From: an uncultured Acidobacteriota bacterium
Lineage (GTDB): Bacteria; Acidobacteriota; Thermoanaerobaculia; Multivoradales; UBA5704
Assembly (NCBI GenBank): GCA_963770895.1
Contig: CAVYRF010000001.1
Coordinates: 736,001 to 800,000, forward strand
DNA length: 64,000 bases
Reading direction: 5' to 3'
A program made the translations under genes and the position numbers. Under the pieces are notes generated by a model. It ran no database searches. It saw only the letters and a program-made list of their open reading frames with translations, and was not told the origin of the DNA. Every line of letters begins with the position of its first letter. The stretch's first letter is position 1. This document shows, piece after piece, positions 5,517 through 46,434 of the stretch.

Positions 5517-5897
5517 ATGGGAAACCCGTTCTGCCACGTTGAGCTGACCACGACCGACATGGACAAGGCCAAGAGCTTCTACACCGGCCTGTTCGATTGG
5601 AATCTCCAGGACGTGCCGATGGGTCCTGGCGGCAGCTACACCTTGATCGGCGTGGGCAAGGACAAGGCCGGCTGCGGTGGCGGCATGATGTCGATGCCGG
5701 GCGCCCCGACGGCGTGGATGGCCTACGTGCTGGTGGACGACGTCAAGGCGTCCACCGAAAAGGCCCGCTCGCTCGGTGCCACCATCGTCAAGGATGTGAT
5801 GGAGGTGCCGGGCGCCGGCTGGATGAGCATCATCACCGATCCGGGTGGTGCCACGCTCGGTCTCTGGGAAGCGAACCCGAACGCCCAGCAGTCCTGA
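5517..5897 (+). CDS. VOC/glyoxalase-bleomycin resistance family protein
   Basis: MGNPFCHVELTTTD..AKSFY..LFDW...WMAYVLVDDV...DPGGATLGLWE; AAGGAG RBS. Confidence 0.9.
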   Translation: MGNPFCHVELTTTDMDKAKSFYTGLFDWNLQDVPMGPGGSYTLIGVGKDKAGCGGGMMSMPGAPTAWMAYVLVDDVKASTEKARSLGATIVKDVMEVPGAGWMSIITDPGGATLGLWEANPNAQQS

Positions 5898-31025: not shown

Positions 31026-32126
31026 TCAGGACGTGGGAGCGGCCACGGCCGGGGGAGCGGCGCCGGCGCCGCCGCCCAGCTCGGCCAGCAGCATCGCGGC
31101 CAGGATGAGGGCGCCGCCGAAGGTCAGCGCGGGCGTCCACGACTCGCGGCCGACGGCGACCGAAAAGACGGCGGCGACGACCGGCTCGGCGGCCAGCAGC
31201 AGCACCGTGTCGGTCGCGGGCAGGTGGCGCTGGGCGTACAGCTGGCACAGGTAGGCCAGCACCGTGCCGGCGAGCGCCGTCAAGCCGATGGCGAACAGGG
31301 CGAAGGGCGTCGCCTCGCCGGCGCGCGGCGGCGCCAGCAGCAGCGACGGCGCGGCGAGCAGCGCGACCACCGCGAACTGCGCCACCGCCAGGGCGGTCAG
31401 CGACATGGCGCCGCGGCGCAGCACGCGCTCGATGCCGACGATGTGCAGCGAAAACGCCAGGGTGCCGGCCAGGGTCAGGGCGTCGCCGCGCCCGAAGGTC
31501 CAGTCGCCGTGCAGCCCCGCCGGCCGGTACAGCAGGTAGAGGCCGGCGGCGGCGCACAGCACCCCGGCGGCCGGTCCGGCCCGCCGGCGCGGCGCGGCGC
31601 CGACAGCGGCCGCCAGGCCGGCGCCGCGTCCCATCCGCAGGGAGAGCCAGGCGAGCGGCGGCACCAGGACGACGGCAAGGCCGGTCAAAAAAGCCGAACG
31701 CGACGGAGTGGTCCACAGCAGGCCGCTCGTCTGCAGCGCGAAGCCGGCGAACAGCAGCAAACCCAGGATGGCGCCCTGGGTCAGCAGCTCCTTGGCCGGA
31801 CCAGCGCCGCCCGCCCTGGGGCCGGGTTCCAGGGCGCCGCCGGCACGGCGGGCGAGCGCCACCGGCAGCAGCAGCAGGGTCGCCAGGCTGAAGCGGTACG
31901 CCAGGAAGTGAAAGATCTGCACGTCGGCCAGGGCGCGCTGCACGACGGTGAACGAGGTGCCCCAGATCACCGTCGCGCCGAACAGGGCCAACCGCGCCAG
32001 CAGCCGCGCGTGCGCCGCCGGCGCCGCCGTGCGCGCCCCGCCCGTGGCGCCGGCCGCGGGCGCCGCGCCGCCCAGGTCCCCCGCCCCCGCTCCTGCCTCC
32101 GCCCCCTCCCCCTCCCCCTCTGACAT
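31026..32126 (-). CDS. DMT/EamA family transporter
   Basis: IWGTSF, GFALQTSGL..TTPSRSAFLT, EPVVAA; about 10 transmembrane segments. Confidence 0.9.
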   Translation of the reverse strand: MSEGEGEGAEAGAGAGDLGGAAPAAGATGGARTAAPAAHARLLARLALFGATVIWGTSFTVVQRALADVQIFHFLAYRFSLATLLLLPVALARRAGGALEPGPRAGGAGPAKELLTQGAILGLLLFAGFALQTSGLLWTTPSRSAFLTGLAVVLVPPLAWLSLRMGRGAGLAAAVGAAPRRRAGPAAGVLCAAAGLYLLYRPAGLHGDWTFGRGDALTLAGTLAFSLHIVGIERVLRRGAMSLTALAVAQFAVVALLAAPSLLLAPPRAGEATPFALFAIGLTALAGTVLAYLCQLYAQRHLPATDTVLLLAAEPVVAAVFSVAVGRESWTPALTFGGALILAAMLLAELGGGAGAAPPAVAAPTS

Positions 32127-32135
32127 CGCGACGGC

Positions 32136-32615
<480 letters not shown>

Positions 32616-32772
32616 CGCGGCTCCTTTCGGTCATCGCCGGGTGCCGCCGGCTGGCGGCGGCACCCGGCACGCGCGCCGCAGTCTACAGCAGGGTGGCCGC
32701 GTCGTGTGGCAGTCGTGCAACAGCTCGCCGCGGGCGTCCCCAACGGCTTGCGTTTCTTGTTTGGCATGTCTA

Positions 32773-32787
32773 TATTGATATTCAATA
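32773..32787. promoter_or_regulatory. AT-rich palindrome, candidate Fur/PerR-family operator
   Basis: TATTGA-TAT-TCAATA directly before the AAGGAGG RBS of the gene at 32801, in the region divergent from bcp. Confidence 0.45.
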
Positions 32788-32800
32788 AAGGAGGTTGCTT

Positions 32801-34216
32801 ATGTTCGACGCTTCGCTAGTTCGTCGCCTGTCTTCGTCCCTGTCCCTGGCCGCTTTTCTGCTGCTTGTCGCCGTTGCGGCGCAGGCGCAGGTGATCGTGC
32901 CCAACCTGGTGTACACCACCATCAAGCCGTGCCGCATCTTCGACACGCGATCGTCGACGGGCGGCAAGCTGATGGCCTCGACGGCGCAGACCTTCAACGT
33001 CGTCGGCAACACCACCGGCACCTACTTCACCAACCAGGGCGGCCCCAGCGGCGGCTGCGCCATTCCCGGCTTCGTCTCCTCGGTGCCGCAGGTACAGGCC
33101 ATCGCCATGAACATCACCATCGTCGCGCCCAGCCTGGCGGCCTTTCTCAACGGCTGGCCGACGGACATCACGATGCCCAGCACCTCGCTGCTCAACTTCC
33201 CGGCGGGCGGCACGGTGGCGTTTGCCAACACGGTGATCCTGGGCGTGCGCCAGGACACCCAGGGTGGCGACATCAGTCTTGAGATCAACGCCGGTAGCGT
33301 CGACGCCTTCGGCGACGTGGTCGGCTACTTCAGTGCCGACAGCGTCACGCCCACCAGCGGTGCCGGCAACGTGCTGCGGGGAGCCGGCGCCGGCAATCAG
33401 GCCTCCAGCTCGGCCACCGGCGGCGACAACGTCGGCATCGGCGTCTCCGCCCTGGGCGGGCTTACCACGGGTGAGCTGAACACCGCGGTCGGCTACCAGT
33501 CCCTCCTCGGCGGCACCACCGCCACCGACGACGTGGCCGTGGGCTACACGGCGCTCAAGACGCTGACCACCGGCAGCGTGAACACGGCGCTGGGAACAGA
33601 AGCGCTGCTCAACCTGGAGACCGGCAGCGGCAACATTGCGGTCGGCTACTTTGCGGGCAGCTCCCTGCTGACCAGTGAAAGCAACAACATCGACATCGGC
33701 AACAGTGGGGTGGTCAGCGACAGCGGCGCGATCCGCATCGGCGGCTCGGGGCAGACCTCCGCGTACATCGCCGGCATCTACGGCTCCACCAGCTCCAGCG
33801 GCGTGGCGGTCTACGTCAACAGCAACGGCCAGCTGGGCACCGCCACCTCCTCGCTGCGCTTCAAGGAAAACGTCCAGGACATGGGCGACGCCAGCGACGG
33901 CTTGCTGCAGCTGCGTCCCGTGACCTTCAACTACAAGCCGCAATACGACGACGGCTCGCACCTCCTGCAGTACGGCCTGATCGCCGAAGAGGTGGCCAAG
34001 GTCTACCCCGGACTGGTGCAGTACGACCAGGACGGCCAGCCGCTGACCGTGCGCTACCAGTTCGTCAACGCCATGCTGCTCAACGAGGTCCAGTCGCAGC
34101 ACAAGACCATCGCCGACCAGCAGACCCAGATCACCCAGCTCAAATCGCAGCTCGAAGACATCCAGAAGACCCTGCGCGCCCTGGCCCAGCCAGCCGCCGC
34201 CCACCCCGCCCAATAG
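32801..34216 (+). CDS. Secreted trimeric fibre/adhesin-like protein with C-terminal peptidase S74 (intramolecular chaperone) domain
   Basis: Signal peptide (..AAQAQ); PCRIFDTR domain; repeated NxAxGxxAL units; SSLRFKENVQDM..LRPVTFNYK..GLIAEEV; terminal coiled coil. Confidence 0.85.
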   Translation: MFDASLVRRLSSSLSLAAFLLLVAVAAQAQVIVPNLVYTTIKPCRIFDTRSSTGGKLMASTAQTFNVVGNTTGTYFTNQGGPSGGCAIPGFVSSVPQVQAIAMNITIVAPSLAAFLNGWPTDITMPSTSLLNFPAGGTVAFANTVILGVRQDTQGGDISLEINAGSVDAFGDVVGYFSADSVTPTSGAGNVLRGAGAGNQASSSATGGDNVGIGVSALGGLTTGELNTAVGYQSLLGGTTATDDVAVGYTALKTLTTGSVNTALGTEALLNLETGSGNIAVGYFAGSSLLTSESNNIDIGNSGVVSDSGAIRIGGSGQTSAYIAGIYGSTSSSGVAVYVNSNGQLGTATSSLRFKENVQDMGDASDGLLQLRPVTFNYKPQYDDGSHLLQYGLIAEEVAKVYPGLVQYDQDGQPLTVRYQFVNAMLLNEVQSQHKTIADQQTQITQLKSQLEDIQKTLRALAQPAAAHPAQ

Positions 34217-35446: not shown

Positions 35447-35451
35447 AAAGG

Positions 35452-36027
35452 CTAGCCGCCCGCGCTCAAGGCGCGATGGAGGAGGTCGGCAACGTCGAGC
35501 TGGGCGGCCCAGGCGCGCAGGTAGGGAAGGTCGAGGCGCCCGGCCTGAGTGCGGACGATGCCCAGGACATCGGTCCACTGGCGGTCCGAGACCTCGCCGC
35601 CCAGGCGGTACCAGGCCAGCTTGCGGAGCAGGGTGTCTTCGGCGGACTTGATGGCGACCGAGCGTGGCGGATCCTCACCCAGGGAATAGGCCACGGCGCG
35701 CTGCATCTCGGCGCGGTCGAAGGCGCCGGCGCCGGACACGAAGACGTCCACCTTGAAGCCGGAGGCGCGGTGGATGAGATTGAACTGGGCGTGCCGCTCG
35801 ATGGCCCGCCGTATCGCCTCGTCGTCCAGATAAAAGTCGGCCTGGAGGCTGGCGGCGAAGGCAGCGACGTGCCCCGTCGTCAGGTCGGCCACAAGGTCCA
35901 AGTCGCGGGTCTGGCGCGGGACGCCGTGGATCGAGCTGGCGAACGAGCCGCCGACGTGGTGGCGGACCCCCAGCTTCTCCAGGACGGCGATCACTTGCAG
36001 CGGCACCGCCCAGAGCGAAACCGTCAT
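35452..36027 (-). CDS. Nucleotidyltransferase-fold protein (TA-like pair, downstream gene)
   Basis: VGGSFASSIHGVPRQTRDLDLV...KVDVF...SAEDTLLRKL..Y...RQWTDV. Confidence 0.78.
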   Translation of the reverse strand: MTVSLWAVPLQVIAVLEKLGVRHHVGGSFASSIHGVPRQTRDLDLVADLTTGHVAAFAASLQADFYLDDEAIRRAIERHAQFNLIHRASGFKVDVFVSGAGAFDRAEMQRAVAYSLGEDPPRSVAIKSAEDTLLRKLAWYRLGGEVSDRQWTDVLGIVRTQAGRLDLPYLRAWAAQLDVADLLHRALSAGG

Positions 36028-36410
36028 GGCTTGCGGGAGTCGTGCGGGAGAGGGCCGTAGGCCTTGGTTGCAAGCTCCTCGCCCAGCTCCAGGCCGTACA
36101 GGCGACGGCGCAGCTCGTCGGGTCCGGCTGCCGGATGGCGACCACGCAGGCCGGCAAGGGCGAGGTCGCGGGAAAGGTGGATGGCTTCGACGACCAGCTG
36201 AACCTTCCGCGCCGGAGTCATGTCGCGATAGATGGCCAGCTGCATGCGCTCGGCCGCAGGATCGGTGTCCGCCGCCAGGGTAGGGTAGGCGACCTCATGC
36301 GGCCGCGGGCGGCGGCCGGCCTCGGGTGCAGACGACAGGCGCGCACCGGGGGCGCCCGTCTCCTTTGGATCCACACCCACTGGCGCGTCAGTCGGGGAGG
36401 GCGCGGCCAT
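36024..36410 (-). CDS. Small helical partner of the nucleotidyltransferase (putative antitoxin)
   Basis: DTDPAAERMQLAIYRDMTPARK...GLRGRHP..ELRRRL; ATGA coupling; TACGAT 6 nt before the ATG. Confidence 0.65.
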   Translation of the reverse strand: MAAPSPTDAPVGVDPKETGAPGARLSSAPEAGRRPRPHEVAYPTLAADTDPAAERMQLAIYRDMTPARKVQLVVEAIHLSRDLALAGLRGRHPAAGPDELRRRLYGLELGEELATKAYGPLPHDSRKP

Positions 36411-36579
36411 GGTGCGATCGTAGCGCAATGTCCGAGGCGTGAGCTCCCTGGCCGCGTGCGAGAGAGTGCGTCCCGCGCCCGCGCCGTCGGCCCACCTGAC
36501 GCCAGCCGGGAACTTGCCGCGGCGTGTCCGTCTCCTCTTCCTGGGAGGACTCCATCGCTGGTCCTGCCACGGAGGAACC

Positions 36580-39045
36580 ATGCGCCGGGACGACCGCCAG
36601 AGCCATTTCGACCTCATCGATGCGCTTGAAAAGGTGAAGGCAGATCTCCGGGAGCGCCTCGGCGTCGATCAAGGGTTCCCCTCACAGCTCGACGCCAGCG
36701 TGCAGGACATCGACCGGTTGATCGGGGAGGTCCAAAAGCGGCGAAGCTCCGGCCTGGGCGGCAGGGAACTGCAAGCGGAGGTGCCCGACGAGGCGGCGGG
36801 GCCGGAGCCGCCGGCGTCGATGCGCGGCAGGGGTCTGGCCGCGGAGGACATCGCCGAGCTACGGCCGCACGTGATCGATTTGAATCAGGGCTTCTTTGCC
36901 GACGACGGCGAGTTCACCACCACCGCGGCGCAGGTCGACCAGCTGTTCGACGGCCTGCGCTCCCGCGCGGCGGAGGCCAAGGCCGCGCGCAAGACGTTGA
37001 ACCTGCTCTTCTATGCCCACGGCGGCCTGGTGGACAAGGATTCCGGCCTGCACCAGGCGCTGGATCAGCGCCGATGGTGGCTCGACAACGACATCTATCC
37101 CATTTTCTTCGTCTGGGAAACCGGGCTCTGGAACACCGTGGAGCACCTGCTGGCCGGCGTGCTGCAGCGCTCGCTCGCCGCCGGCGCTCGCAGTCTGACC
37201 GACACCACGACCGATCCCCTGCTGGAGCTGCTGGCGCGGGCGGCCGGGGGACCCAAGATCTGGGGCGGCATGAAGCTCAGCGCGCTGGCCGCGTCACAAC
37301 GTGGCGCGGCGGCCGCCAACGCCCCGGCGGGAACCGCCGCCGCGGGAGAGGGGGGCGCGCACTACGTGGCGCGCCGGCTGCGCGCCTTTCTCAAGCAGGC
37401 AGCGGGCGACGTCGAGCTGCACGCCCTGGGCCATAGCGCCGGCGCGATCTTCCACTCCTACTTCATGCCGACCGTGCTCGACCTCGTTCCGGATGCGAGC
37501 TTCAAATCGCTCCATCTGCTGGCGCCGGCAATCCGGATCGACGCGTTCAAAGAGCGCCTTCTACCGCTTGTCGGCGCCGACAACCGCATCGAGCGGCTGA
37601 CGATGTACTCGATGAAAACCGATCTCGAAAAAGCGGACAACTGCGCCGGGATCTATCGCAAGTCGCTGCTCTACCTCATCTACTACGCCCTCGAGGACCA
37701 CCGCCGGACGGACCTTCTCGGACTGGAGGAGTCGGTCTGGCGCGACGCCGGCATCAAGGCTTTCTTCGGGCTCGACGGCGCCACCGACTCGCCGGCCGAC
37801 GCGATCTGGTCGCAGACTCCGCCGGGCGGCGACAGCGCATCGCGGGCAACCAGCCACGGCGGGTTTCACGACGACCGATCCACCATGGAAAGCGTGGTGC
37901 GGCGGATCCGCGCTCTGCCCGACACCGTGCCGGTGAGCCCCAACCGGCACCAGACCGACGGCGGCCGCAACCTCGATCTGCACAATGTCGGCCTGGCGTC
38001 GAAGTTCGCGGCGGCGGTCGCGGCCAGCTCGTCGGGGGTGGTCGTGCCCGGCTTTGCTCCGGGCGCGCGCCTCGCCGCCCGCGGCGTCGGGGGCCGCCGC
38101 CGCGCGCTGTGCGTCGGCATCAACGCCTATCCAGGCGTCAACGCTCTATTCGGCTGTGTCGCCGACGCGCAGCTGTGGACGCGCACCCTCCAGCTGCTGG
38201 GCTTCGAGGTGCAGACGATGGTCGACGCCACCGCCACCTACGACGGGATCAAGGCGGCGCTGTCGGGCCTGATCGCCGACAGCGCGGCCGGCGACGTCGT
38301 GGTGTTCCAATACGCCGGCCACGGCACGCAGGTGCCCGATCCCACGTCCGCGCAGACCGACGAAGCGATCGTGCCCGTCGATTTCAGCCGCGGCGCGCTG
38401 CTCCTCGACAAGGAGCTGCGGGCGATCTACGACACCACGCCGCAAGGCGTCAACCTCACCTGCTTCCTGGATTGCTGCCACTCGGGCGACCTCGACCGCG
38501 AGCTTTTCGCGGGCGCCTTGGGTCACCTGGCACGCCGCATCGTCCTCACCAAGGCGCAGATGGCGGCCTACCAGCAGTTCGCCCGCCGCCGCGGCCCCAT
38601 CGCCGCGCGCAGTCTCGCGGCGGTCCGCGGCGACCTCAAAGACGTCAGCTTCGCCGCCTGCCAGAAAGATCAGGTGGCGTACGAAAATGGCGGCCAGGGC
38701 GACTTTACCTTGCGCACCACCCGGCTGCTGCAGCACGGACTGCCGGCGGCGACCAACCGGGAGTTCTGCGATCAGATCGTCGCCGCCTTCGGCGCCGGCG
38801 CGCAGCAACTGCCGCGCCTCGACGGCGGTGCGAGCCGCTTCGCGCAGCTCCTGCTGCTACCCCTCACCGCGGCATCGGCGGCGACTCCGGCCGATGGCGG
38901 CGCTCCAGCCGCGGTTCCAGCAGCCGGCGGGGCCAGCCCTGAACCGGCGGCGCCTGCGCCCAATCGCGCCAATGGGTCCGACCGGTCGCAGGCGCTGCAC
39001 CTGCTGGCCCAACTGGCCGAGCTGCTCGCGGTAGACCGCCCGTGA
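36580..39045 (+). CDS. Alpha/beta-hydrolase - caspase-like (peptidase C14) fusion
   Basis: Hydrolase part FYAHGGL..GHSAG..LLAPA..SHGGF; caspase part RRALCVGINAY, QYAGHG and LDCCHSG (His/Cys dyad); GGAGG RBS. Confidence 0.88.
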   Translation: MRRDDRQSHFDLIDALEKVKADLRERLGVDQGFPSQLDASVQDIDRLIGEVQKRRSSGLGGRELQAEVPDEAAGPEPPASMRGRGLAAEDIAELRPHVIDLNQGFFADDGEFTTTAAQVDQLFDGLRSRAAEAKAARKTLNLLFYAHGGLVDKDSGLHQALDQRRWWLDNDIYPIFFVWETGLWNTVEHLLAGVLQRSLAAGARSLTDTTTDPLLELLARAAGGPKIWGGMKLSALAASQRGAAAANAPAGTAAAGEGGAHYVARRLRAFLKQAAGDVELHALGHSAGAIFHSYFMPTVLDLVPDASFKSLHLLAPAIRIDAFKERLLPLVGADNRIERLTMYSMKTDLEKADNCAGIYRKSLLYLIYYALEDHRRTDLLGLEESVWRDAGIKAFFGLDGATDSPADAIWSQTPPGGDSASRATSHGGFHDDRSTMESVVRRIRALPDTVPVSPNRHQTDGGRNLDLHNVGLASKFAAAVAASSSGVVVPGFAPGARLAARGVGGRRRALCVGINAYPGVNALFGCVADAQLWTRTLQLLGFEVQTMVDATATYDGIKAALSGLIADSAAGDVVVFQYAGHGTQVPDPTSAQTDEAIVPVDFSRGALLLDKELRAIYDTTPQGVNLTCFLDCCHSGDLDRELFAGALGHLARRIVLTKAQMAAYQQFARRRGPIAARSLAAVRGDLKDVSFAACQKDQVAYENGGQGDFTLRTTRLLQHGLPAATNREFCDQIVAAFGAGAQQLPRLDGGASRFAQLLLLPLTAASAATPADGGAPAAVPAAGGASPEPAAPAPNRANGSDRSQALHLLAQLAELLAVDRP

Positions 39046-40892
39046 GGTCTCAGGCGGCGACGGGCCGCTTCGTCGTCGCGCCCTCCGTCACCCGGGCGGC
39101 GCGCAACCGCCCCTACGAGCGGCGCCCCGGCGACCCGTTGTTCCGGCCGCTGCGCATCTACACCCTCGATCCGGCTGCCTCCCTCCCGGACTGTCCGACC
39201 GCCACGCTGAAGATCCCTTACGAGCCGCTTTCCCCCGGCCCGCAGGGGTCCCGCTTCGCGGTGGTCGACGCCTTGGGAGAGCGCCGCAACCAGCCGGTCG
39301 ACCTCGACGACGTCAGGCTCGCCATGGGCGAGGGCTTCGCTCCCTCGCCTTCGCAGATTCAGTTCCACCAGCAGATGGCCTATGCAGTCTGCAGCGCGGT
39401 CCATGCCACCTTCCGCCACGCCCTGGGGCGGCCGCCCGCCTGGGGTTTCGACGAGCGACAGGACCCGCTGCACCAGGACCGCCTGGTCATCCGGCCGCAC
39501 GGCACCCACGACCGCAACGCCTATTACGACAAGGCGCGCGGCGAGCTGGTCTTCGGCTATTTCGCGGCCGATCCCCAGGTGCTGGGCAACAACCTGCCGC
39601 GTGGCACGATCTTCACCTGCCTTTCGCACGACATCGTCGTCCACGAGCTGACCCATGCGCTGCTCGACGGCCTGCGCTGCGAGTTCCACCGCCCGACGGG
39701 CGCCGACGTGCTCGCCTTCCACGAAGCGTTCGCCGACCTCGTGGCGTTCTTCCAGCGCTTCAGCTACCGGGAGGTGGTCGTCGCGGCGCTCAAGGCGAGC
39801 CACGGCAGCTTGCCGCAGGCGCCGCGGCTCATCGACCTGGCGGCGCAGTTCGCGCAGACGATCGGCGCCGGCCAGACGTTGCGCCGCGCCCTGCAACCGG
39901 AGCTCACCGAGGCCGACCTCACGCGCATGCACAACGATTCCGACCCCCACGTCCGCGGCTCGCTCCTGGTCGGCGCCGTGGTCGACGCCTTCGATCGCAT
40001 CTATCGCAAGAAAATCGACGTCTACCTGCGCCTGGCGACGAACGGCACCGGCGTCCTGCCGCACGGCGACCTCAGCACGGATCTGCTGGCGGCCCTGGCG
40101 GAGGAGATCTGCCAGCTGGCCTCCCAATTCCTCAGCATCCTGGTGCGAGCGATCGACTACTGCCCGCCGGTCGACATCCAATTCGGCGAGTACCTGCGCG
40201 CGCTGATCACCGCCGATTACGCCCTGGTTCCCGACGATCCCTGGGGCTACCGTGAAGCCTTGATCCAATCGTTTCGCCGCCGCCTCATCTATCCGCCGGA
40301 CGTCGACGACCTGGCGGAGGATTCGCTGCTCTGGCGTCCGCCACCGCGGCCGATCGGCTGCAAGGACCTGAGCTTTTCGATCCTGCACTTCCATGGCGAC
40401 CCGTCGAACGCGGCCGATGCCGGCGAACTGCATCGGCAAGCCGACGCCCTGGGCAACCTGGTCACCGATCCCGCCAACCTGGACCTGTTCGGCCTGGTCG
40501 CGGCCGGCGACATGGGCGCCGACCCGCCGTGCGTGCAGACCATCCGTTCCACCCGCCGCGGCGGCCCCGACGGCCAAGTGGTCTTCGACCTGGTCGCCGA
40601 GGTCACCCAGCGCCGCACGGGGCGCGCCGCCGATGGTCTGGCCTTCGACTATTACGGCGGCGCCACGATCATCTTCGGGCCCAGCGGCGACGTCCGCTAC
40701 GCCATCCTCAAGCGCGTCGATCACCAGCAGCGCGAAGCCACCGTCGGCAGCTACGTCGCCGGCGACGGCAAGAGCCAGTGGCAGCGCGCCGGCGGCCGCT
40801 GGGCGCCGCTGCCCGACCCCTTCCGGCGCCTGCACGAAGGCCGCTTTCAGCCAGCCACCGCCGACAGCCATCCGGAGTCAGCACGCGTCTGA
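39042..40892 (+). CDS. Gluzincin metallopeptidase (M4/M36-like), no signal peptide
   Basis: NAYY, DIVVHELTHALLD (HExxH) and AFHEAFAD (third ligand); GTGA coupling to the caspase gene. Confidence 0.85.
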   Translation: MRSQAATGRFVVAPSVTRAARNRPYERRPGDPLFRPLRIYTLDPAASLPDCPTATLKIPYEPLSPGPQGSRFAVVDALGERRNQPVDLDDVRLAMGEGFAPSPSQIQFHQQMAYAVCSAVHATFRHALGRPPAWGFDERQDPLHQDRLVIRPHGTHDRNAYYDKARGELVFGYFAADPQVLGNNLPRGTIFTCLSHDIVVHELTHALLDGLRCEFHRPTGADVLAFHEAFADLVAFFQRFSYREVVVAALKASHGSLPQAPRLIDLAAQFAQTIGAGQTLRRALQPELTEADLTRMHNDSDPHVRGSLLVGAVVDAFDRIYRKKIDVYLRLATNGTGVLPHGDLSTDLLAALAEEICQLASQFLSILVRAIDYCPPVDIQFGEYLRALITADYALVPDDPWGYREALIQSFRRRLIYPPDVDDLAEDSLLWRPPPRPIGCKDLSFSILHFHGDPSNAADAGELHRQADALGNLVTDPANLDLFGLVAAGDMGADPPCVQTIRSTRRGGPDGQVVFDLVAEVTQRRTGRAADGLAFDYYGGATIIFGPSGDVRYAILKRVDHQQREATVGSYVAGDGKSQWQRAGGRWAPLPDPFRRLHEGRFQPATADSHPESARV

Positions 40893-41006
40893 GCCTGGGC
40901 CGCTCGCTGCGATCGGGCTGAGGGGATTGCAGCGGCCGCTTCGTTGTCATGGCTGCGGCACGACTGTGGTGCGATCACGCCCCAGCCAGACAAAGAGAGC
41001 CCCCAT

Positions 41007-41942
41007 ATGCCTGAAAAGACCGTCGGTCCTTACAAAGTGCGCACCTATCCCGTTCCTCCCACCGGCTTCGACCCCTTCTCGGCCACGGCAGCCGACCTGC
41101 AGCGTCACGGCTTGCCGCGGCGCCCGGATGCGGAGACAGAGGCGCAAGCCTCCCTGACCTGGATGAAAGCCATGCATCATTACCGGGATCGCAAGTTCAC
41201 CCACGTCGTCCCGGAGTTCAAGGAGCATCCGGAGCGCGTCCACGGCCCCAACCAGCGGACCGCGGAGGCCAGCCGGGGTCTGATGGACGCCACCTCCTCC
41301 AATTGGTCGGGGGCGGTGGCTTTCGTCAACCCGGCGAAAGATCCCTTCGTCTGGATCACCGGAGAGTGGACGGTCCCCAATGCCTACAGTCCGACTCCCG
41401 GCAACGGTGAGACGTACTACCTGTCGGCCTGGCTCGGCATCGACGGGGATGGCTCCCCGGACGTTCTCCAGGCCGGTACCGCGACGCAGGTTACCGGCGC
41501 GTCCAAGGCCGTCTGCTACGCCTGGATGGAGTGGTATCCGCAATTTGAAGTCGAGATCTCCAACTTTCCGTTCGCTCCGGGAGACAGCGCCAGCCTGCTG
41601 ATCTGTTCGACGGGACCCACGACGGCCTCGTTCACCTTCACCAATCTCACCTCGCTCCTGGTCACCAGCTTCAAGCTCACCGCGCCCGCCGGCACGACCC
41701 TGATCGGCAACTGCGCCGAGGCCGTGCTCGAGCGCCCAGGAGTGGGCGGCAAGCTGGCGGAGCTGCCGCGCTACGGCGAAAATCTCTTCAACTCGGTGTC
41801 GGCCCACACCAAGTCGGCCGCCTCGTACACCATCGGCAACGCGACGCTCATCAGCATGCTTGCCGACAACGGAACCACCATCATCTCGACGCCTTCAACC
41901 CTGGATTCGGACTCGATTCGCATGCAGTACACCGGCCCCTAG
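41007..41942 (+). CDS. G1-family glutamic peptidase (eqolisin-like) with N-terminal pro-region
   Basis: SSNWSG, AWLGIDG, LQAG (catalytic Q), AWMEWYP, AEAVLERP (catalytic E). Confidence 0.88.
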   Translation: MPEKTVGPYKVRTYPVPPTGFDPFSATAADLQRHGLPRRPDAETEAQASLTWMKAMHHYRDRKFTHVVPEFKEHPERVHGPNQRTAEASRGLMDATSSNWSGAVAFVNPAKDPFVWITGEWTVPNAYSPTPGNGETYYLSAWLGIDGDGSPDVLQAGTATQVTGASKAVCYAWMEWYPQFEVEISNFPFAPGDSASLLICSTGPTTASFTFTNLTSLLVTSFKLTAPAGTTLIGNCAEAVLERPGVGGKLAELPRYGENLFNSVSAHTKSAASYTIGNATLISMLADNGTTIISTPSTLDSDSIRMQYTGP

Positions 41943-42231
41943 ACTAGCGTTTCATGCATCCGTTTTCCCGACGCCACAGACCCTCGCGTCGCGGCTCGCC
42001 GAACCGGTGCGGCGGGTCGCGGCGCGGGAAGCTGGCCGCGGGGCTCGCATTTCGCGGACCGGCCGGCGCGCCGGCCGCCGCGCACCGTCGCAGCCGGACC
42101 TGGTTTTGCCCGCCGAACTGCGCCGCCTCACCTGCAAACCACACTGTGGCTCCCACCGGGGCAGCGGGCGCACCCTCCCTGTCGTGGGCATCAGATCGTC
42201 TGGTGCCACGCGACCCATAGGAGGTGGGAGC

Positions 42232-42435
42232 ATGAAGCGATTCGTTTGGGTGGTAGCCCTGCTGCTGTCGGTTGTAGCTGCTTCGGCGTCGCAGGCCAGC
42301 CTCTTGGGCAAGCGGCCGTCGTCGACCCATCCCGCCGTATGCGGAGGCGGCTGCACCTACACCATCCAGTGCGTGAAGGTCTGCGGCGGCATCGGCAATG
42401 CCATCTGCGAGGATGGTCGCTGCGTGCCGGAATAG
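42232..42435 (+). CDS. Small secreted six-cysteine peptide, 67 aa
   Basis: Signal peptide MKRFVWVVALLLSVVAASASQA; C-x3-C-x5-C-x3-C-x7-C-x4-C; AGGAGG/GGGAG upstream. Confidence 0.75.
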   Translation: MKRFVWVVALLLSVVAASASQASLLGKRPSSTHPAVCGGGCTYTIQCVKVCGGIGNAICEDGRCVPE

Positions 42436-42649
42436 CACCCCGTCAAGCTGAAACCGTTGCAGGGGCGGGCCGCCAGCCTGGGCCCGCCCCTCAGCGGCGA
42501 CGGCCGGAGCTCGACGACACGCCGAGCTCGTTCAAGGTCATCGACGCCGCGGTGCAGGAACAGCTGTAAGCTCCGCGGCAGGCGCCGCTCCGCGGGTGTG
42601 CCTGGAGTGGTGATCGCCTTTCGTCTTGCGACCCCAGGAGGCAGTCAAA

Positions 42650-42817
42650 ATGAAGACCATCAAGGCCTTGTCCTCGATCCCGGCGCGCCGGCAACCGCTT
42701 GTCGACCTGACCCGGACCGCGCTCCAGACGGCGATCGGCGGCGGCGCCACGATCAATAACAATCCCCTGTACAGCCCTGGCGGGGAGGCCGGAAACAACC
42801 CGCTGAACCGGCCTTGA
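42650..42817 (+). CDS. 55-aa peptide with a double-glycine-type leader and duplicated NNPL core
   Basis: AGGAGG RBS; MKTIKALSS...LTRTALQTAIGG followed by GATINNNPLYSPGGEAGNNPLNRP. Confidence 0.65.
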   Translation: MKTIKALSSIPARRQPLVDLTRTALQTAIGGGATINNNPLYSPGGEAGNNPLNRP

Positions 42818-43154
42818 GACGGTGAGCCCTGCAAGCCGCGCGGTCCCCGCCCGATAGTGCCGGAACGGGATTGCAGCAAGACGACCGCCACGTTCGATCA
42901 TGGCAGATCCTGCTCGATTTGCTCGAGCAGGATCAGTACCTGAACCGTGGCAGCTGCCCGGAAGATCATCCGCTCTGGAAGATCGTGCGCACCGACCAGC
43001 TCTTCCTGCAGGACATGCTGACACCACCGCGGATACCGAGACGTGCGAAGCGTTCCGCAATGGGTTGGCCCGACCGCGGCGCGCCTGACGGCGCGACCGC
43101 GATCGGGCCGGGGGGGCGCGGGCGGAGCGTCTTGCCGGCCGCGGCGGCGGCTGG

Positions 43155-43469
43155 TCAGTGGAAGCCCAACGCGAACAGCAGCGCTGTGCGGACCTCTTCC
43201 ATGCGGTGGGGACGAAGGGTGGTGATCAACCCGGCCAGCCGCTCGCGGGATACGGTCTGCAGGTGGTCGAGGTTGGCCACTGAGGCGCGGGGCATGCCGT
43301 CGTCCTCGGTTAACAGAACCTCGGAGGGTATGTCGCGGATGGTGGAGGTGATGGGAGCTACGGTGACCTGGCCGAGAAACTCCAAGGCGGAGTCCCGCGT
43401 CAGCACCAGGACTGGGCGCGTCTTGTCAGGCGCTCCGAAGCGATACCAGCGAATTTCACCGCGCTGCAT
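43155..43469 (-). CDS. mazF: PemK/MazF family toxin
   Basis: MQRGEIRW...DKTRPVLVLT...VTVAPITS...NLDHLQTV. Confidence 0.92.
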   Translation of the reverse strand: MQRGEIRWYRFGAPDKTRPVLVLTRDSALEFLGQVTVAPITSTIRDIPSEVLLTEDDGMPRASVANLDHLQTVSRERLAGLITTLRPHRMEEVRTALLFALGFH

Positions 43470-43699
43470 CAGTCCGGCCAGACCTGCTGGTCTTCCCAGG
43501 CATCCAGCTCACCGGCGACCACGGGCTTGGCGGTATAGCCGGCACGGTGGCGGCGCTCCAGCTCCAGCTCGTGGCGTCGTGCCAGTGCGGCTCGCAATGC
43601 CTCCCGGGTGAAGGCGGAGCGACTGGTCCCCAACGCTTCGACGGCACGATCGACTTCTTCGATCAAGGCTTCGTCGAGCGTCATTTGCACGGTCTTCAT
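43469..43699 (-). CDS. Ribbon-helix-helix antitoxin cognate to the MazF toxin
   Basis: MKTVQMTLDEALIEEVD...SRSAFTREAL...GY; TGATG coupling to the toxin. Confidence 0.88.
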   Translation of the reverse strand: MKTVQMTLDEALIEEVDRAVEALGTSRSAFTREALRAALARRHELELERRHRAGYTAKPVVAGELDAWEDQQVWPD

Positions 43700-43718
43700 C
43701 CGCTAGCTTCCTCATGCG

Positions 43719-43740
43719 AATAGCTATGTCAATCGCTATT
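43719..43740. promoter_or_regulatory. Candidate TA autoregulatory operator
   Basis: AATAGC-N10-GCTATT inverted repeat enclosing a minus-strand TTGACA. Confidence 0.5.
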
Positions 43741-43869
43741 ATGGTCCAAGCGGCCGAATGCACGCAATCGCTCGGCCGGGTGCGGGACCATCCGCATCTA
43801 TAATGGGATTGGCGCCACCAGCCAGGTTGGAGCTGCGCCGGCACCTGTCGCAAAGGATCTCGTTTAGCG

Positions 43870-46083
43870 ATGTGTGGAATCTGCGGTTACGTCACGTTCC
43901 GCCCAGAGGGGCTTGGTCCCGAGCCGGCGAACGCCGGGGCGCGGGCGGATGCCTCGTCGGCTGCCCGCGGCGTGGCCGCGGTGGAGGCGATGCTGGGCGC
44001 GCTGGCACATCGGGGGCCGGACGCGTCGGGCTTGCAGGTTTCTGGGCCGGCGGTGCTGGGCGCCACCCGCCTGGCCATCCGCGGCATCGCCGACGGCCGG
44101 CAGCCGCTGGTCGATCCCGCGAGCGGGGTGGTGGCGGTGTGCAACGGCGAGCTGGACAACCACCGGGAGATCAAAACCTGGCTGGCGGCGCGCGGCAGGC
44201 CGGTGGCCCAGGCGACCGACGTGGCGGTGATTCCGGGCCTGTACCTGGAGCTGGGCGACGATTTTCCCGCCTATCTGGTCGGGGCGTTCGCGATCGCCCT
44301 GTGGGATCCCCGCCGCCGGCGCTTGCTGCTGGCTCGCGATCGGGCGGGAGAGAAGCCGCTGTTCTTCCGCGCGGTTCGCGTGGCTGCGGCCCAGCCTTCC
44401 CAGGCTTCGAACTCGCCGGGCGGTGCGCCTGCTGACGCCCTGGACGTGGCGCTGGTCGCGACCGAGCTCGCCGCCCTCGCCGCCAGCCGATCCCGGCCCG
44501 CCGCGGGCGAATCGCGGGACGCTGCCGGCGCACCGTCAGCGGATCTGGACCAGGCGGCGCTGGCGCACTACTTGCGCTTCGGCTGCTTTGCCGTGCCGGG
44601 CACACCGTTCGCCGGGGTCCAGAAGGTCGGGCCTGGCGAACGGATCGTGCTCGACGCTGGTGGAATCCATCGCCACCGCTACTGGCGCTGGCGGCAGGGG
44701 GCGTCGCCCACCCTCCCCGCTACGGAGCCGCTCTCTGCCTCGCCGGCGCTCCCGGCTGCCTCTGCAGCCCCTGCGCTGCCGCCAAGCTCGGCGCAGCCGG
44801 CGGGCAGCTCCGCCGTTCGGGTGGCCGACTTCGATCGCGTGTTCCGGCAGGCGATCGGACGGCAGATCGACGTGGAGGTGCCTTGCGGGGTGTTTCTGTC
44901 GGGCGGGCTGGATTCGTCCCTGGTGGCGGCGGTGGCGCGGGACGTGCGGCCGGACGTGGCCTTGGCCGCGTTCTCGCTGCGCTTCCACGAGGATAGCTAC
45001 GACGAGGGCGAAGTGGCGGCGCGGGTGGCGCGGCGGCTGGGGCTGGCGGCGACCGAGGTGTGGGTGCGCCCCGAAGACTTCATGGCGTCGCTGCCCGAGC
45101 TGGTGCGGATGGCCGGCGAGCCGCTGGCGGACCCGGCCTGGGTGCCGGCGGCGCTGCTCGCTCGCCGGGCGGCGGCCGACGTGCGGCAGGTGCTGGTGGG
45201 GGAGGGGGGCGACGAGCTGTTCGGCGGCTATCCGACCCACAGCGGCGTCTGGCTGGCCGAGCGCTATGCGCGTCTGCCGCGGATGGTGCGGCGGCTGGCG
45301 GCGGGCGCCGTGGCGAAGCTGCCGCCCAGCGACAAGAAGGTGACGGTCTCCTTTCTGCTCAAGCGCTTCATCGCCGGCGACGGCATCGAGGGCCTGGCCC
45401 GCCACCAGCTGTGGACTTCCAACATCGCGCCGGACATCCTGGCCCGCCTGGGCATCGCGGCGGCGCCGTCGGCGGTGCCGGCGGGTCTGCCGCCCGGCAC
45501 GCTGCTCGACCGCGTACAGCAGTACGACCTGGAAACCTCGCTGGCGGAAGGGCTGCTGACCAAGGCCGACCGCGCCAGCATGCACTTTGCCCTGGAGCTG
45601 CGGGCGCCCTTCCTGGACCGCGACGTCATGGAGTGGGCCGCCGGGCTCCCCGATGCGCAACGCGTGCGCGGCCTGCGCACCAAGGTGTTCCTCAAGCGCT
45701 ACGCCCGCTCCTACCTGCCCCGCTGGGTGGTCGAGCGCCGCAAGCGCGGCCTGTCCGTCCCCCTGGCCTCCTGGCTGCGCGGCCCCCTGCGCGCCTGGGC
45801 CGCGGACCGCCTTCACGGTGGCCGCCTGGCCGCCGCCGGTGTCGACGAAGCCGCCGCCGCCGCCCTGTTCCGCGAGCACCTCAACCGCGAGCGCGATCAC
45901 GCCCGGTCGCTGTGGACCCTGATCGTCCTGGCAGAGTGGCTCGACTGGGTCGCCGGCCTGAGCACCGCCTCGACCGCCTCGACGCCCGCCAACGCCGCCG
46001 TCGTCGCGCCGCCAGCCGATGCCCTGCTTACGGCCCTTGCCGCAGAGCCGGCCGCCGCCGAAGTGGCTGTGGCCCACGGCTAG
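43870..46083 (+). CDS. asnB: Asparagine synthetase (glutamine-hydrolysing) family amidotransferase
   Basis: MCGICG, HRGPD, NGE, RDRAGEKPL, LSGGLDSS, GEGGDELFGGY, ELRAPFLD. Confidence 0.92.
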   Translation: MCGICGYVTFRPEGLGPEPANAGARADASSAARGVAAVEAMLGALAHRGPDASGLQVSGPAVLGATRLAIRGIADGRQPLVDPASGVVAVCNGELDNHREIKTWLAARGRPVAQATDVAVIPGLYLELGDDFPAYLVGAFAIALWDPRRRRLLLARDRAGEKPLFFRAVRVAAAQPSQASNSPGGAPADALDVALVATELAALAASRSRPAAGESRDAAGAPSADLDQAALAHYLRFGCFAVPGTPFAGVQKVGPGERIVLDAGGIHRHRYWRWRQGASPTLPATEPLSASPALPAASAAPALPPSSAQPAGSSAVRVADFDRVFRQAIGRQIDVEVPCGVFLSGGLDSSLVAAVARDVRPDVALAAFSLRFHEDSYDEGEVAARVARRLGLAATEVWVRPEDFMASLPELVRMAGEPLADPAWVPAALLARRAAADVRQVLVGEGGDELFGGYPTHSGVWLAERYARLPRMVRRLAAGAVAKLPPSDKKVTVSFLLKRFIAGDGIEGLARHQLWTSNIAPDILARLGIAAAPSAVPAGLPPGTLLDRVQQYDLETSLAEGLLTKADRASMHFALELRAPFLDRDVMEWAAGLPDAQRVRGLRTKVFLKRYARSYLPRWVVERRKRGLSVPLASWLRGPLRAWAADRLHGGRLAAAGVDEAAAAALFREHLNRERDHARSLWTLIVLAEWLDWVAGLSTASTASTPANAAVVAPPADALLTALAAEPAAAEVAVAHG

Positions 46084-46247
46084 TGGCCTGTCCTGTTCGA
46101 ATCGAAAGCGCCTGGCTTGCCCTCGACGGCGGGGGCTGCGTTGCGCCTCCTCGACATAGTCTCAGCTATGCCTGCGTCGGCGCGCCTGGCCCGCGCCGTC
46201 GAATGGCGGCGCCATCCGCTTTCGAATTCTCCAGGACAGGCCGCTAG
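46080..46247. mobile_element. 168-bp MITE/REP-like element, copy 2 (inverted)
   Basis: Reverse-complement homologue of 3696-3863; CTAG at both ends; its left TAG is the asnB stop codon. Confidence 0.8.
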
Positions 46248-46299
46248 GTAGGCGCCGGCGGGCCGCGCTGCGGCATCTTCGCCGCTGCACAGTCATGGA

Positions 46300-46328
46300 T
46301 TGACATCTGAGGGACCCTGGCCTATAGT
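46300..46328 (+). promoter_or_regulatory. sigma70 promoter of the rpsA operon
   Basis: TTGACA-17-TATAGT. Confidence 0.8.
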
Positions 46329-46434
46329 TCTACGTCCCGAGTTCTAAACGAGTTAGGCAGAACTCGAGCCCCACGTTCGTTGGGGACTACAGGCCAAGTG
46401 CCTGAATCCACGCCCAAGGAGGTACGTCTTTACT

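Follow-up and report, generated by a model that had tools for sequence, protein, structure and literature searches.

The 64,000-nucleotide stretch of an uncultured Acidobacteriota genome considered here (the window; contig CAVYRF010000001.1, positions 736,001 to 800,000) encodes two adjacent proteins, a fusion of an α/β-hydrolase with a caspase-like protease (gene 1) and a zinc peptidase of the thermolysin/fungalysin fold (gene 2). The two form a conserved, co-evolving, leaderless pair that has intact active sites and a patchy distribution and that lies here within an insertion. We propose, with a probability of about 0.5, that the pair is a proteolysis-gated two-protease module of cell death or defense, for which we infer proteolytic activation, toxicity, a trigger, and a possible role in defense. 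An earlier note on this DNA had described a cassette of three proteases of different classes, with a G1 glutamic peptidase as the third; our analysis corrects that annotation to a two-gene module and a bystander. The three genes and their domains are as follows.

36580..39045, + strand: gene 1, α/β-hydrolase and C14 caspase-like fusion, 821 residues (open reading frame, Shine-Dalgarno sequence, Pfam Peptidase_C14)
36847..37929, + strand: α/β-hydrolase domain of gene 1 (AlphaFold2 model, structural search, invariant residues)
38095..38700, + strand: caspase (C14) catalytic domain of gene 1, with His581 and Cys633 (Pfam PF00656, PADLOC "caspase")
39042..40892, + strand: gene 2, M4-like (M4L) zinc peptidase, 616 residues (GTGA overlap, invariant residues, fold match)
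40329..40841, + strand: C-terminal β-rich domain of gene 2, approximately residues 430–600 (secondary structure of the model)
41007..41942, + strand: gene 3, G1 (A4, eqolisin) glutamic peptidase, 311 residues (Pfam PF01828)

The window has a G+C content of 71.6%, and reading frames were picked by their third-position GC (GC3), which is of the coding type (0.83–0.90) in three co-oriented genes on the + strand between 36.4 and 42 kb. That these are adjacent genes for a cysteine, a zinc, and a glutamic protease, as the earlier note had it, is borne out by the open reading frames (ORFs), the motifs, Pfam matches for genes 1 and 3, and the fold of gene 2.

The probable start of gene 1, at ATG 36580, is preceded by a GGAGG Shine-Dalgarno sequence. 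An upstream GTG at 36439 was rejected as the start because ATG 36580 has this sequence and agrees with the N termini of relatives. The protein is composed of a short helical N-terminal region, the α/β-hydrolase, a linker, the C14 caspase-like domain, and a C-terminal tail; the motifs of its first half are LLFYAHGG and GHSAG, and those of its second half are YAGHG and DCCHSG. Pfam returned Peptidase_C14 (PF00656) and no other domain, at 85.7 bits against a family cut-off of 21.4 (5e-24); this match spans residues 553–754 of an 868-residue ORF, and the other residues of gene 1 are given here in the 821-residue numbering. NCBIfam gave a sub-threshold caspase match, and PADLOC, which had been put forward as a check on a defense role, recognized only the caspase domain of the protein (6.5e-20). 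Both members of the caspase dyad, His581 (QYAGHG) and Cys633 (DCCHSG), are invariant in 24 aligned sequences. In the same alignment the hydrolase residues His147-Gly148-Gly149, Gly284-His285-Ser286-x-Gly288, Asp353, and His426 do not vary either, such that the fold, the GxSxG elbow, an acid, and a histidine of an α/β-hydrolase are all present, the triad roles of Asp353 and His426 being assigned by position.

The fusion of the caspase to a GHSAG α/β-hydrolase, which the earlier note had recognized, is supported by the C14 match and by the fold search. The AlphaFold2 model of the hydrolase domain has a mean predicted local distance difference test score (pLDDT) of 85.3. Foldseek found no match to it at E ≤ 0.001; a wide structural search with VIA-align listed 50 entries with Z scores of 9.8–12.3, of which 48 are enzymes of the α/β-hydrolase fold (dienelactone hydrolase, phospholipase A1, lipases, and thioesterases), the exceptions, at ranks 4 and 40, being a chain of a cryo-EM microtubule complex and a designed protein cage, respectively. 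Two loops of the model, at model residues 112–120 and 159–166, have low confidence. The nearly invariant Arg204 falls in the first of them, and for these two reasons the loop around Arg204 is a candidate cleavage site.

At least 718 relatives were retrieved with the N-terminal half of gene 1 as the query. Those nearest to it have 790–800 residues and the same layout as the window protein, and most of the others have about 980 residues and an additional N-terminal Amidase_2 domain (PF01510); these longer proteins come from Polaromonas, Variovorax, Herbaspirillum, Massilia, Caballeronia, Binatia, and others. The short N-terminal region of the window protein aligns to the linker located behind Amidase_2 in longer relatives, and the window's clade simply appears, from such alignments, to be without this domain. 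The hydrolase domain of gene 1 also occurs at the C terminus of papain-like "C1 family peptidase" proteins of about 650 residues, on plasmids of Sinorhizobium, Eleftheria, and Ideonella; no M4L gene was found near this fusion at the two loci checked (Sinorhizobium and Eleftheria; L162 and L163).

Gene 2 begins at GTG 39042, which overlaps the stop codon of gene 1 in the sequence GTGA, so the translational coupling of the two genes claimed earlier holds. The protein contains the motifs VVHELTHAL (HELTH) and AFHEAFAD. His201-Glu202-x-x-His205 and Glu228 are invariant in 28 aligned sequences, which provides both the HExxH motif and the downstream glutamate of such zinc peptidases. No Pfam, NCBIfam (E ≤ 0.1), or PADLOC model matched gene 2, and M4 membership is thus not reached through a sequence model; a profile of the M4L family matched the sequences of the PDB at chance level only (E 0.045), and a distant member of the family (P0381) matched Peptidase_M4 at 31.3 bits with no separately significant stretch. 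The fold is what places the protein. In a search with its AlphaFold2 model (pLDDT 85.4; predicted template modeling score, 0.90), every one of the top 27 Foldseek matches is an M36 fungalysin or an M4 thermolysin-like enzyme, with a best E of 2e-4. Alignment with VIA gave a Z score of 24.2 for M36 (315 residues, root mean square deviation of 3.8) and 17–18.4 for M4, the next class being M1 at 10.7. The alignment covers model residues 35–428, which is the whole of the mature two-lobed enzyme, at an identity to M4/M36 of about 12–14%. Because the alignment to the mature domain already begins at residue 35, gene 2 has no propeptide of the kind found in secreted M4 and M36 enzymes. Residues of about 430–600 are rich in β-structure and lie beyond residues 29–429, to which the fold-search matches are confined; an Atlas feature search with this C-terminal domain scored below 0.8.

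M4L is a large family. A word-index search found more than 5,894 relatives in several phyla, many above 50% identity; some are named "peptidase M4" by their source, and none carries a precomputed Pfam domain. When 1.84 billion cluster representatives were searched with a profile, 5,868 reached E ≤ 1e-3 and 1,876 reached E ≤ 1e-30, which puts the family at 5,868 or more clusters at 50% identity. Some members are fused to other domains, namely PG_binding_1 with CHAP, PG_binding_1, Amidase_2, caspase, S8 with GDPD, and the PF04185 phosphoesterase (P0376, P0378, P0437, P0448, P0474, and P0498). Proteins P0364–P0370 have about 1,100–1,200 residues and two stretches that match the M4L profile; they appear from these matches to be tandem M4L-M4L proteins, and no Pfam domain was found in the two that were scanned (P0364 and P0366). 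A search of viral contigs gave six weak partial matches only, at 26–34% identity over 130–180 residues.

Both proteins are predicted to be intracellular. A crude hydropathy test of N termini found nothing like a signal peptide in the three window proteins, in agreement with the earlier note, nor in any of two sets of 115 and 139 relatives of M4L (0/254 overall) or of 115 relatives of gene 1. The same test flagged 10 of 112 relatives of the G1 peptidase, all of them more distant, and these serve as a positive control. With an alignment that starts at residue 35 and no hydrophobic N terminus, gene 2 does not resemble the secreted pre-pro-enzymes of M4 and M36.

The gene for the caspase-hydrolase fusion stands directly upstream of the M4L gene in the window and in loci L001, L002, and L034. 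L001 and L002 come from the closest genome relatives (Thermoanaerobaculia metagenome-assembled genomes, 73% identity) and have the caspase fusion and M4L followed by unrelated genes, one cytochrome-like and the other encoding a β-helix protein. The 4-nucleotide overlap of the two genes recurs in L001 and L072. An M4L homologue is present in 24 of 401 sampled genomes of the phylum. A tblastn search around 20 of these loci found no G1 peptidase and a single caspase fusion (L034, from a sister genus within the window's family, where it occupies another locus). Eighteen phylum M4L ORFs were scanned with Pfam. The peptidase is fused behind Peptidase_S8 in nine and behind TPR-S in one, an arrangement seen only in these other members of the family; the neighbors include an MBL-fold (metallo-β-lactamase) protein on the 3′ side in four cases, a patatin on the 5′ side in one, Peptidase_M43 on the 5′ side in one, and Peptidase_M6 on the 3′ side in one (L047).

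A wider sample, the best 80 of 562 metagenome loci by similarity to the window protein, is skewed to the window's clade, and its class proportions are biased for this reason: the caspase fusion lies upstream of M4L at 12 of the 57 loci having at least 900 nucleotides of upstream sequence, and the 42 loci that are informative on both sides divide into M4L with MBL (26), caspase (9), S8-fused with MBL (3), S8-fused (2), and neither (2). A caspase and an MBL gene were never found together in the metagenome loci, and no G1 gene was found in any of the 80. Every one of the nine caspase loci whose upstream sequence reaches 3.7 kb or more also has Amidase_2. Both "neither" loci, and three further loci, carry a Peptidase_M43 gene of 296–340 residues and an ORF of about 100 residues upstream. 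No M4L is solitary among the 42 loci; each is beside or fused to another hydrolase.

M4L loci of a sister clade, preceded by M43, are L076, L077, L098, L117, L131, and L032; the M43 protein looks leaderless, and an ORF of about 100 residues without a family match is also seen in L076, L077, L098, and L131. At L132, a protein of 1,150 residues with HTH_8, AAA_16, and MalT-like tetratricopeptide repeat (TPR) regions (STAND-like; L132:10-3462, + strand) is encoded directly 5′ of an Amidase_2-hydrolase-caspase gene and M4L, and may be a sensor or regulator at that locus.

In a FastTree phylogeny of 105 M4L sequences the type of partner follows the tree. One clade of 36 sequences (SH-like support of 98) holds 16 with a caspase partner, 6 with M43, and 14 mostly on short contigs; a clade of 54 (support of 100) is linked to MBL and S8, and a further clade of 14 to MBL. 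Partner labels change 27 times on the tree compared with 55.5 times in shuffles, none of 200 shuffles being as low, a test that shows clustering and not independent events, as related sequences share labels. The pairing is kept at all informative loci of the clade, and the clades are partner-specific; adjacency is thus conserved and the two components have diversified together, as is looked for in a protease-effector pair. Of the co-occurrence that the earlier note's cassette implied, genes 1 and 2 bear out their part and the third gene does not.

Some partners and surroundings of M4L outside the caspase class resemble those of defense systems. The MBL partners match the PADLOC models LmuA, RTasMBL, Avs1a MBL, and PDC-M48B. 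M4L genes occur in 59 plasmid records, 35 of them of conjugative plasmids. On an Agrobacterium plasmid the order is patatin, M4L, and MBL, followed directly by DUF1837 and a DEAD/DEAH helicase, and on a Deinococcus plasmid it is integrase, M4L, MBL, and patatin. With respect to a setting among defense genes, one MBL-class locus adjoins the DUF1837-helicase pair, the insertion in the window (described below) holds the RHH-MazF pair and a toxin-antitoxin-like pair, and the caspase-class loci scanned elsewhere gave no specific PADLOC match.

How would such a pair work? In the mechanism that we envisage, the products of genes 1 and 2 would be kept inactive as a cytoplasmic, self-contained module. 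A trigger such as infection or envelope stress would license one protease to cut the other protein, and cleavage would free the caspase and hydrolase activities, such that the cell is killed or arrested. Gene 2 belongs to the constant component of its family, the variable partner being another hydrolase, here the lipase/esterase-like hydrolase-caspase polypeptide. The cytoplasmic zymogen-type cascade that the earlier note had put forward is reasonable for genes 1 and 2, given a coupled leaderless pair, invariant active sites, and the MBL pro-nuclease partners elsewhere, but it does not extend to G1. With respect to the order of events, we favor gene 2 in the role of initiator or sensor, with the hydrolase-caspase acting as executioner, because the zinc peptidase is the constant component of the family and its other partners are effectors; this assignment of roles is tentative at best. 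The reverse is also conceivable, whereby the caspase would activate the zinc peptidase, or the S8 domain would do so in the fusions.

Recent work has established protease-activated death effectors as a major theme in bacterial immunity, and the proteases named in the text of Evans et al. and Tuck et al. belong to the serine (trypsin, subtilisin) and cysteine (caspase) classes (PMC12642450, PMC12799240). The present analysis ties a large, unannotated intracellular thermolysin-like family to the same effectors, and one of its clades to a caspase-hydrolase fusion. If M4L proteins are initiators, bacterial cell-death signaling would gain a further class of protease and a tier in which one protease acts on another, and thousands of proteins now called "hypothetical" or "peptidase M4" could be given a function. 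A bolder proposal, to which we give little chance, is that M4L makes up a fourth class of proteases that initiate immunity, a metallo class that gates nuclease, phospholipase, and caspase-hydrolase effectors, that the window's clade is a two-tier cascade from metalloprotease to caspase, and that in most relatives a cytoplasmic PGRP/AmpD-like Amidase_2 input reads muropeptides. Such a system would be a bacterial counterpart of the peptidoglycan-sensing caspase pathways of animals.

Several observations weigh against a module of cell death or defense. The function of all family members is predicted from sequence and context. Nine caspase-class loci other than the window, with 46 neighboring ORFs scanned, gave no specific PADLOC match and only generic helicase, ABC, and desaturase matches, and at six of these loci the Pfam names obtained for some of the neighbors are those of housekeeping genes (AMP-binding, PALP, topoisomerase subunit A). 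The enrichment in defense islands that the earlier note had anticipated is therefore not shown for the caspase class, which is not visibly within recognizable defense islands. Neither M4L nor the pair is represented by a PADLOC model, and Pfam recognized no sensor domain (repeat, STAND, TPR-S, or other) in genes 1 and 2. The fusions of M4L to PG_binding_1, CHAP, and Amidase_2 fit an envelope-directed or exported role as well. The bias of the metagenome sample noted above counts on the same side, as does the fact that the window hydrolase is likened to the characterized Lysobacter hydrolase by fold and context.

The alternative that survives best, unlikely as we consider it, is that the pair carries out intracellular housekeeping or stress proteolysis, for example in cell-wall recycling through the AmpD-like Amidase_2 domain, with no role in conflict or death. 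Amidase_2 is also the fold of the cytoplasmic enzyme AmpD, and the ordinary metabolic genes around caspase-class loci and the strong conservation of residues across phyla would suit such a function. A housekeeping protein is not expected, however, in so few genomes of the phylum, at a different locus in a sister genus, in an inserted island in the window, or frequently on conjugative plasmids, and the partners of M4L are typical death effectors (MBL nuclease, patatin).

It is also improbable that, in place of an intracellular switch, the two genes provide enzymes for degradation or bacteriolysis that leave the cell by export or release and serve antagonism, predation, or nutrient acquisition. 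The fusions of M4L to cell-wall domains just mentioned, the Amidase_2 domain in most relatives of gene 1, the resemblance of the hydrolase model to lipases and phospholipases, and the solved M4 and M36 enzymes, which by their structure titles are secreted proteases, are all consistent with export. Yet none of the tested relatives of either protein has a signal peptide-like N terminus in a test that does flag secreted G1 relatives, and gene 2 is without a propeptide. Pfam scans of the neighbors showed no secretion-system or toxin-delivery domains, and the commonest partner of M4L is a defense-type nuclease.

The remaining alternative concerns the third gene. The G1 peptidase starts at ATG 41007 with a weak Shine-Dalgarno sequence, 114 nucleotides past gene 2 on the same strand, and no terminator is predicted between the two. 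It matches Peptidase_A4 (PF01828) at 126.7 bits against a cut-off of 22.3 (1.1e-36), and Gln155 and Glu242, which we take to be the Gln/Glu catalytic dyad of the family, are invariant in 14 relatives. The clade nearest the window has 303–311 residues, is leaderless at this conserved full length, and retains a conserved N-terminal (pro-)region of about 90 residues. No G1 gene was found beside any of 104 other M4L loci, the two closest relatives included, and in four other genomes of the phylum the genes around more distant homologues of G1 include those for glycoside hydrolases and a DPP-IV (dipeptidyl peptidase IV) peptidase. Characterized G1 enzymes have acid optima, according to the account in PMC3009609. 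The G1 gene is thus best seen as a lineage-specific neighbor in the same island, a bystander outside the module. A three-protease cytoplasmic cascade with G1 and/or the hydrolase as its final effector is very unlikely, since the short gap without a terminator, the leaderless clade, and the other peptidase classes that accompany M4L elsewhere (M43, and M6 in L047) are outweighed by the absence of G1 from the 104 other loci, by the cytochrome-like and β-helix genes that take its place in L001 and L002, by the company that its homologues keep, and by acid optima ill-suited to the cytoplasm.

The proposed two-protease module lies in an insertion, the other parts of which are listed below.

35447..46434: insertion of about 11 kb between queG and rpsA (S1) (queG-rpsA synteny in relatives, dip in GC)
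35452..36027, − strand: nucleotidyltransferase-like ORF, 191 residues (GC3 of 0.91; GS...DLD motif in the translation)
36024-36410: small ORF overlapping the nucleotidyltransferase-like ORF
43155-43469, − strand: PemK/MazF toxin (Pfam PemK_toxin PF02452, 68.7 bits, 6.1e-19)
43469-43699, − strand: ribbon-helix-helix (RHH) antitoxin (Pfam RHH_1 PF01402, 32 bits, 1.1e-07)
43870-46083, + strand: asnB-like gene, 737 residues, asparagine-synthase-like

In six of eight genomes of the same order, rpsA follows queG within about 400 nucleotides and is itself followed by HU, HIT, DUF6677, and lpxB; in the window queG and rpsA are about 11 kb apart (35447-46434). The intervening DNA has a GC of 0.64–0.69 compared with 0.72–0.75 in its flanks and contains the nucleotidyltransferase-like pair, genes 1–3, a stretch of about 1.2 kb in which no gene is confidently called, the RHH-MazF pair, and the asnB-like gene. 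The island had been placed between queG and asnB, but its borders are queG and rpsA; the asnB-like gene is inside the insertion and is missing between queG and rpsA in six syntenic relatives. The toxin-antitoxin-like modules that the earlier note saw on both sides are confirmed on the right, where the RHH antitoxin and PemK/MazF genes overlap by one base and form a type II pair of the MazEF type. On the left, the nucleotidyltransferase-like ORF matches AbiEii below the cut-off (E 0.073), and together with the overlapping small ORF it may form a pair that is, judged by its sequence, toxin-antitoxin-like only.

In the gene-poor interval downstream of G1 (41943-43155, about 1.2 kb), GC is lower than anywhere else in the region, and none of the ORFs shows a codon bias of the coding type. 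Within it, on the + strand 3′ of the G1 gene, an ORF of 67 residues (42232-42435) has a signal peptide-like start and eight cysteines; its only matches are sub-threshold, to "defensin-like" (E 0.01) and EB-module (E 0.038) models. A second variable spot lies farther upstream, at 31026-34216, where genes for EamA, AhpC, and a 473-residue protein with a Peptidase_S74 chaperone domain (tail-fiber type) separate a glutamate dehydrogenase gene from queG; several relatives have these two genes side by side. The source genome has four more Peptidase_C14 genes on other contigs.

Among known systems, the earlier note had named those in which bacterial caspase-like proteases activate effectors such as gasdermins against phages. 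Bacterial gasdermin-protease systems likewise have a caspase-like protease in an accessory locus and share the idea of cleavage-activated death, but the partners here are enzymes, and no gasdermin-like gene was seen among the neighbors scanned in the window and the related loci; a gasdermin-type system was rejected for this reason. A further relation is to the Amidase_2-caspase proteins surveyed by Asplund-Samuelsson et al. in 2012 (PMC3501461), which are the family of gene 1, with Polaromonas naphthalenivorans in both sets. As presented in that survey, the hydrolase domain and the zinc-peptidase neighbor are not recognized; the window's clade appears to have lost Amidase_2.

Gene 2 shares with thermolysin (M4) and fungalysin (M36) the two-lobed catalytic fold, the HExxH motif, and the downstream glutamate zinc ligand. 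It differs from them in having no Pfam match, no signal peptide, and no propeptide of the FTP/PepSY type, in its additional C-terminal domain of about 190 residues, and in being apparently intracellular and paired with another hydrolase. We found no relevant literature report that joins thermolysin to anti-phage systems, and across the themes of protease-effector pairs, metalloproteases, and MBL proteins only the preprint of Evans et al. (PMC12642450) was relevant.

Protease-gated MBL pairs are a parallel for other clades of the family. In two 2025 papers on them, the MBL family is shown to be a pro-nuclease that is opened by an adjoining trypsin-like or caspase protease, and MBL clades are said also to adjoin subtilisin-like and "other diverse" proteases (PMC12642450, PMC12799240). 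Neither the text of Evans et al. nor that of Tuck et al. names a metallopeptidase partner; their figures and supplements may list an M4-like one. The known pairs are trypsin-, caspase-, or S8-linked and include canu CanABC (PMC12799240, PMC12642450). Other clades of M4L lie directly 5′ of MBL genes, and the MBL proteins linked to M4L match the same PADLOC effector models (LmuA, RTasMBL, Avs1a) as the protease-gated ones; unlike these pairs, the window has no MBL gene.

Another system close to the window pair is LcCaspase/LcHydrolase of Lysobacter capsici, in which, as described in the text of the Evans et al. 2025 preprint (PMC12642450), an α/β-hydrolase zymogen is cut twice after Arg by an adjacent caspase. 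In both cases a caspase-like protease is tied genetically to a leaderless lipase/peptidase-like α/β-hydrolase. The Lysobacter zymogen is cut at Arg-Gly sites (PMC12642450), and the window protein has a nearly invariant arginine in a disordered loop of the hydrolase model. The window pair has no STAND or repeat sensor. Its hydrolase and caspase are joined in one polypeptide, and the zinc peptidase is a third enzyme, added as a conserved partner.

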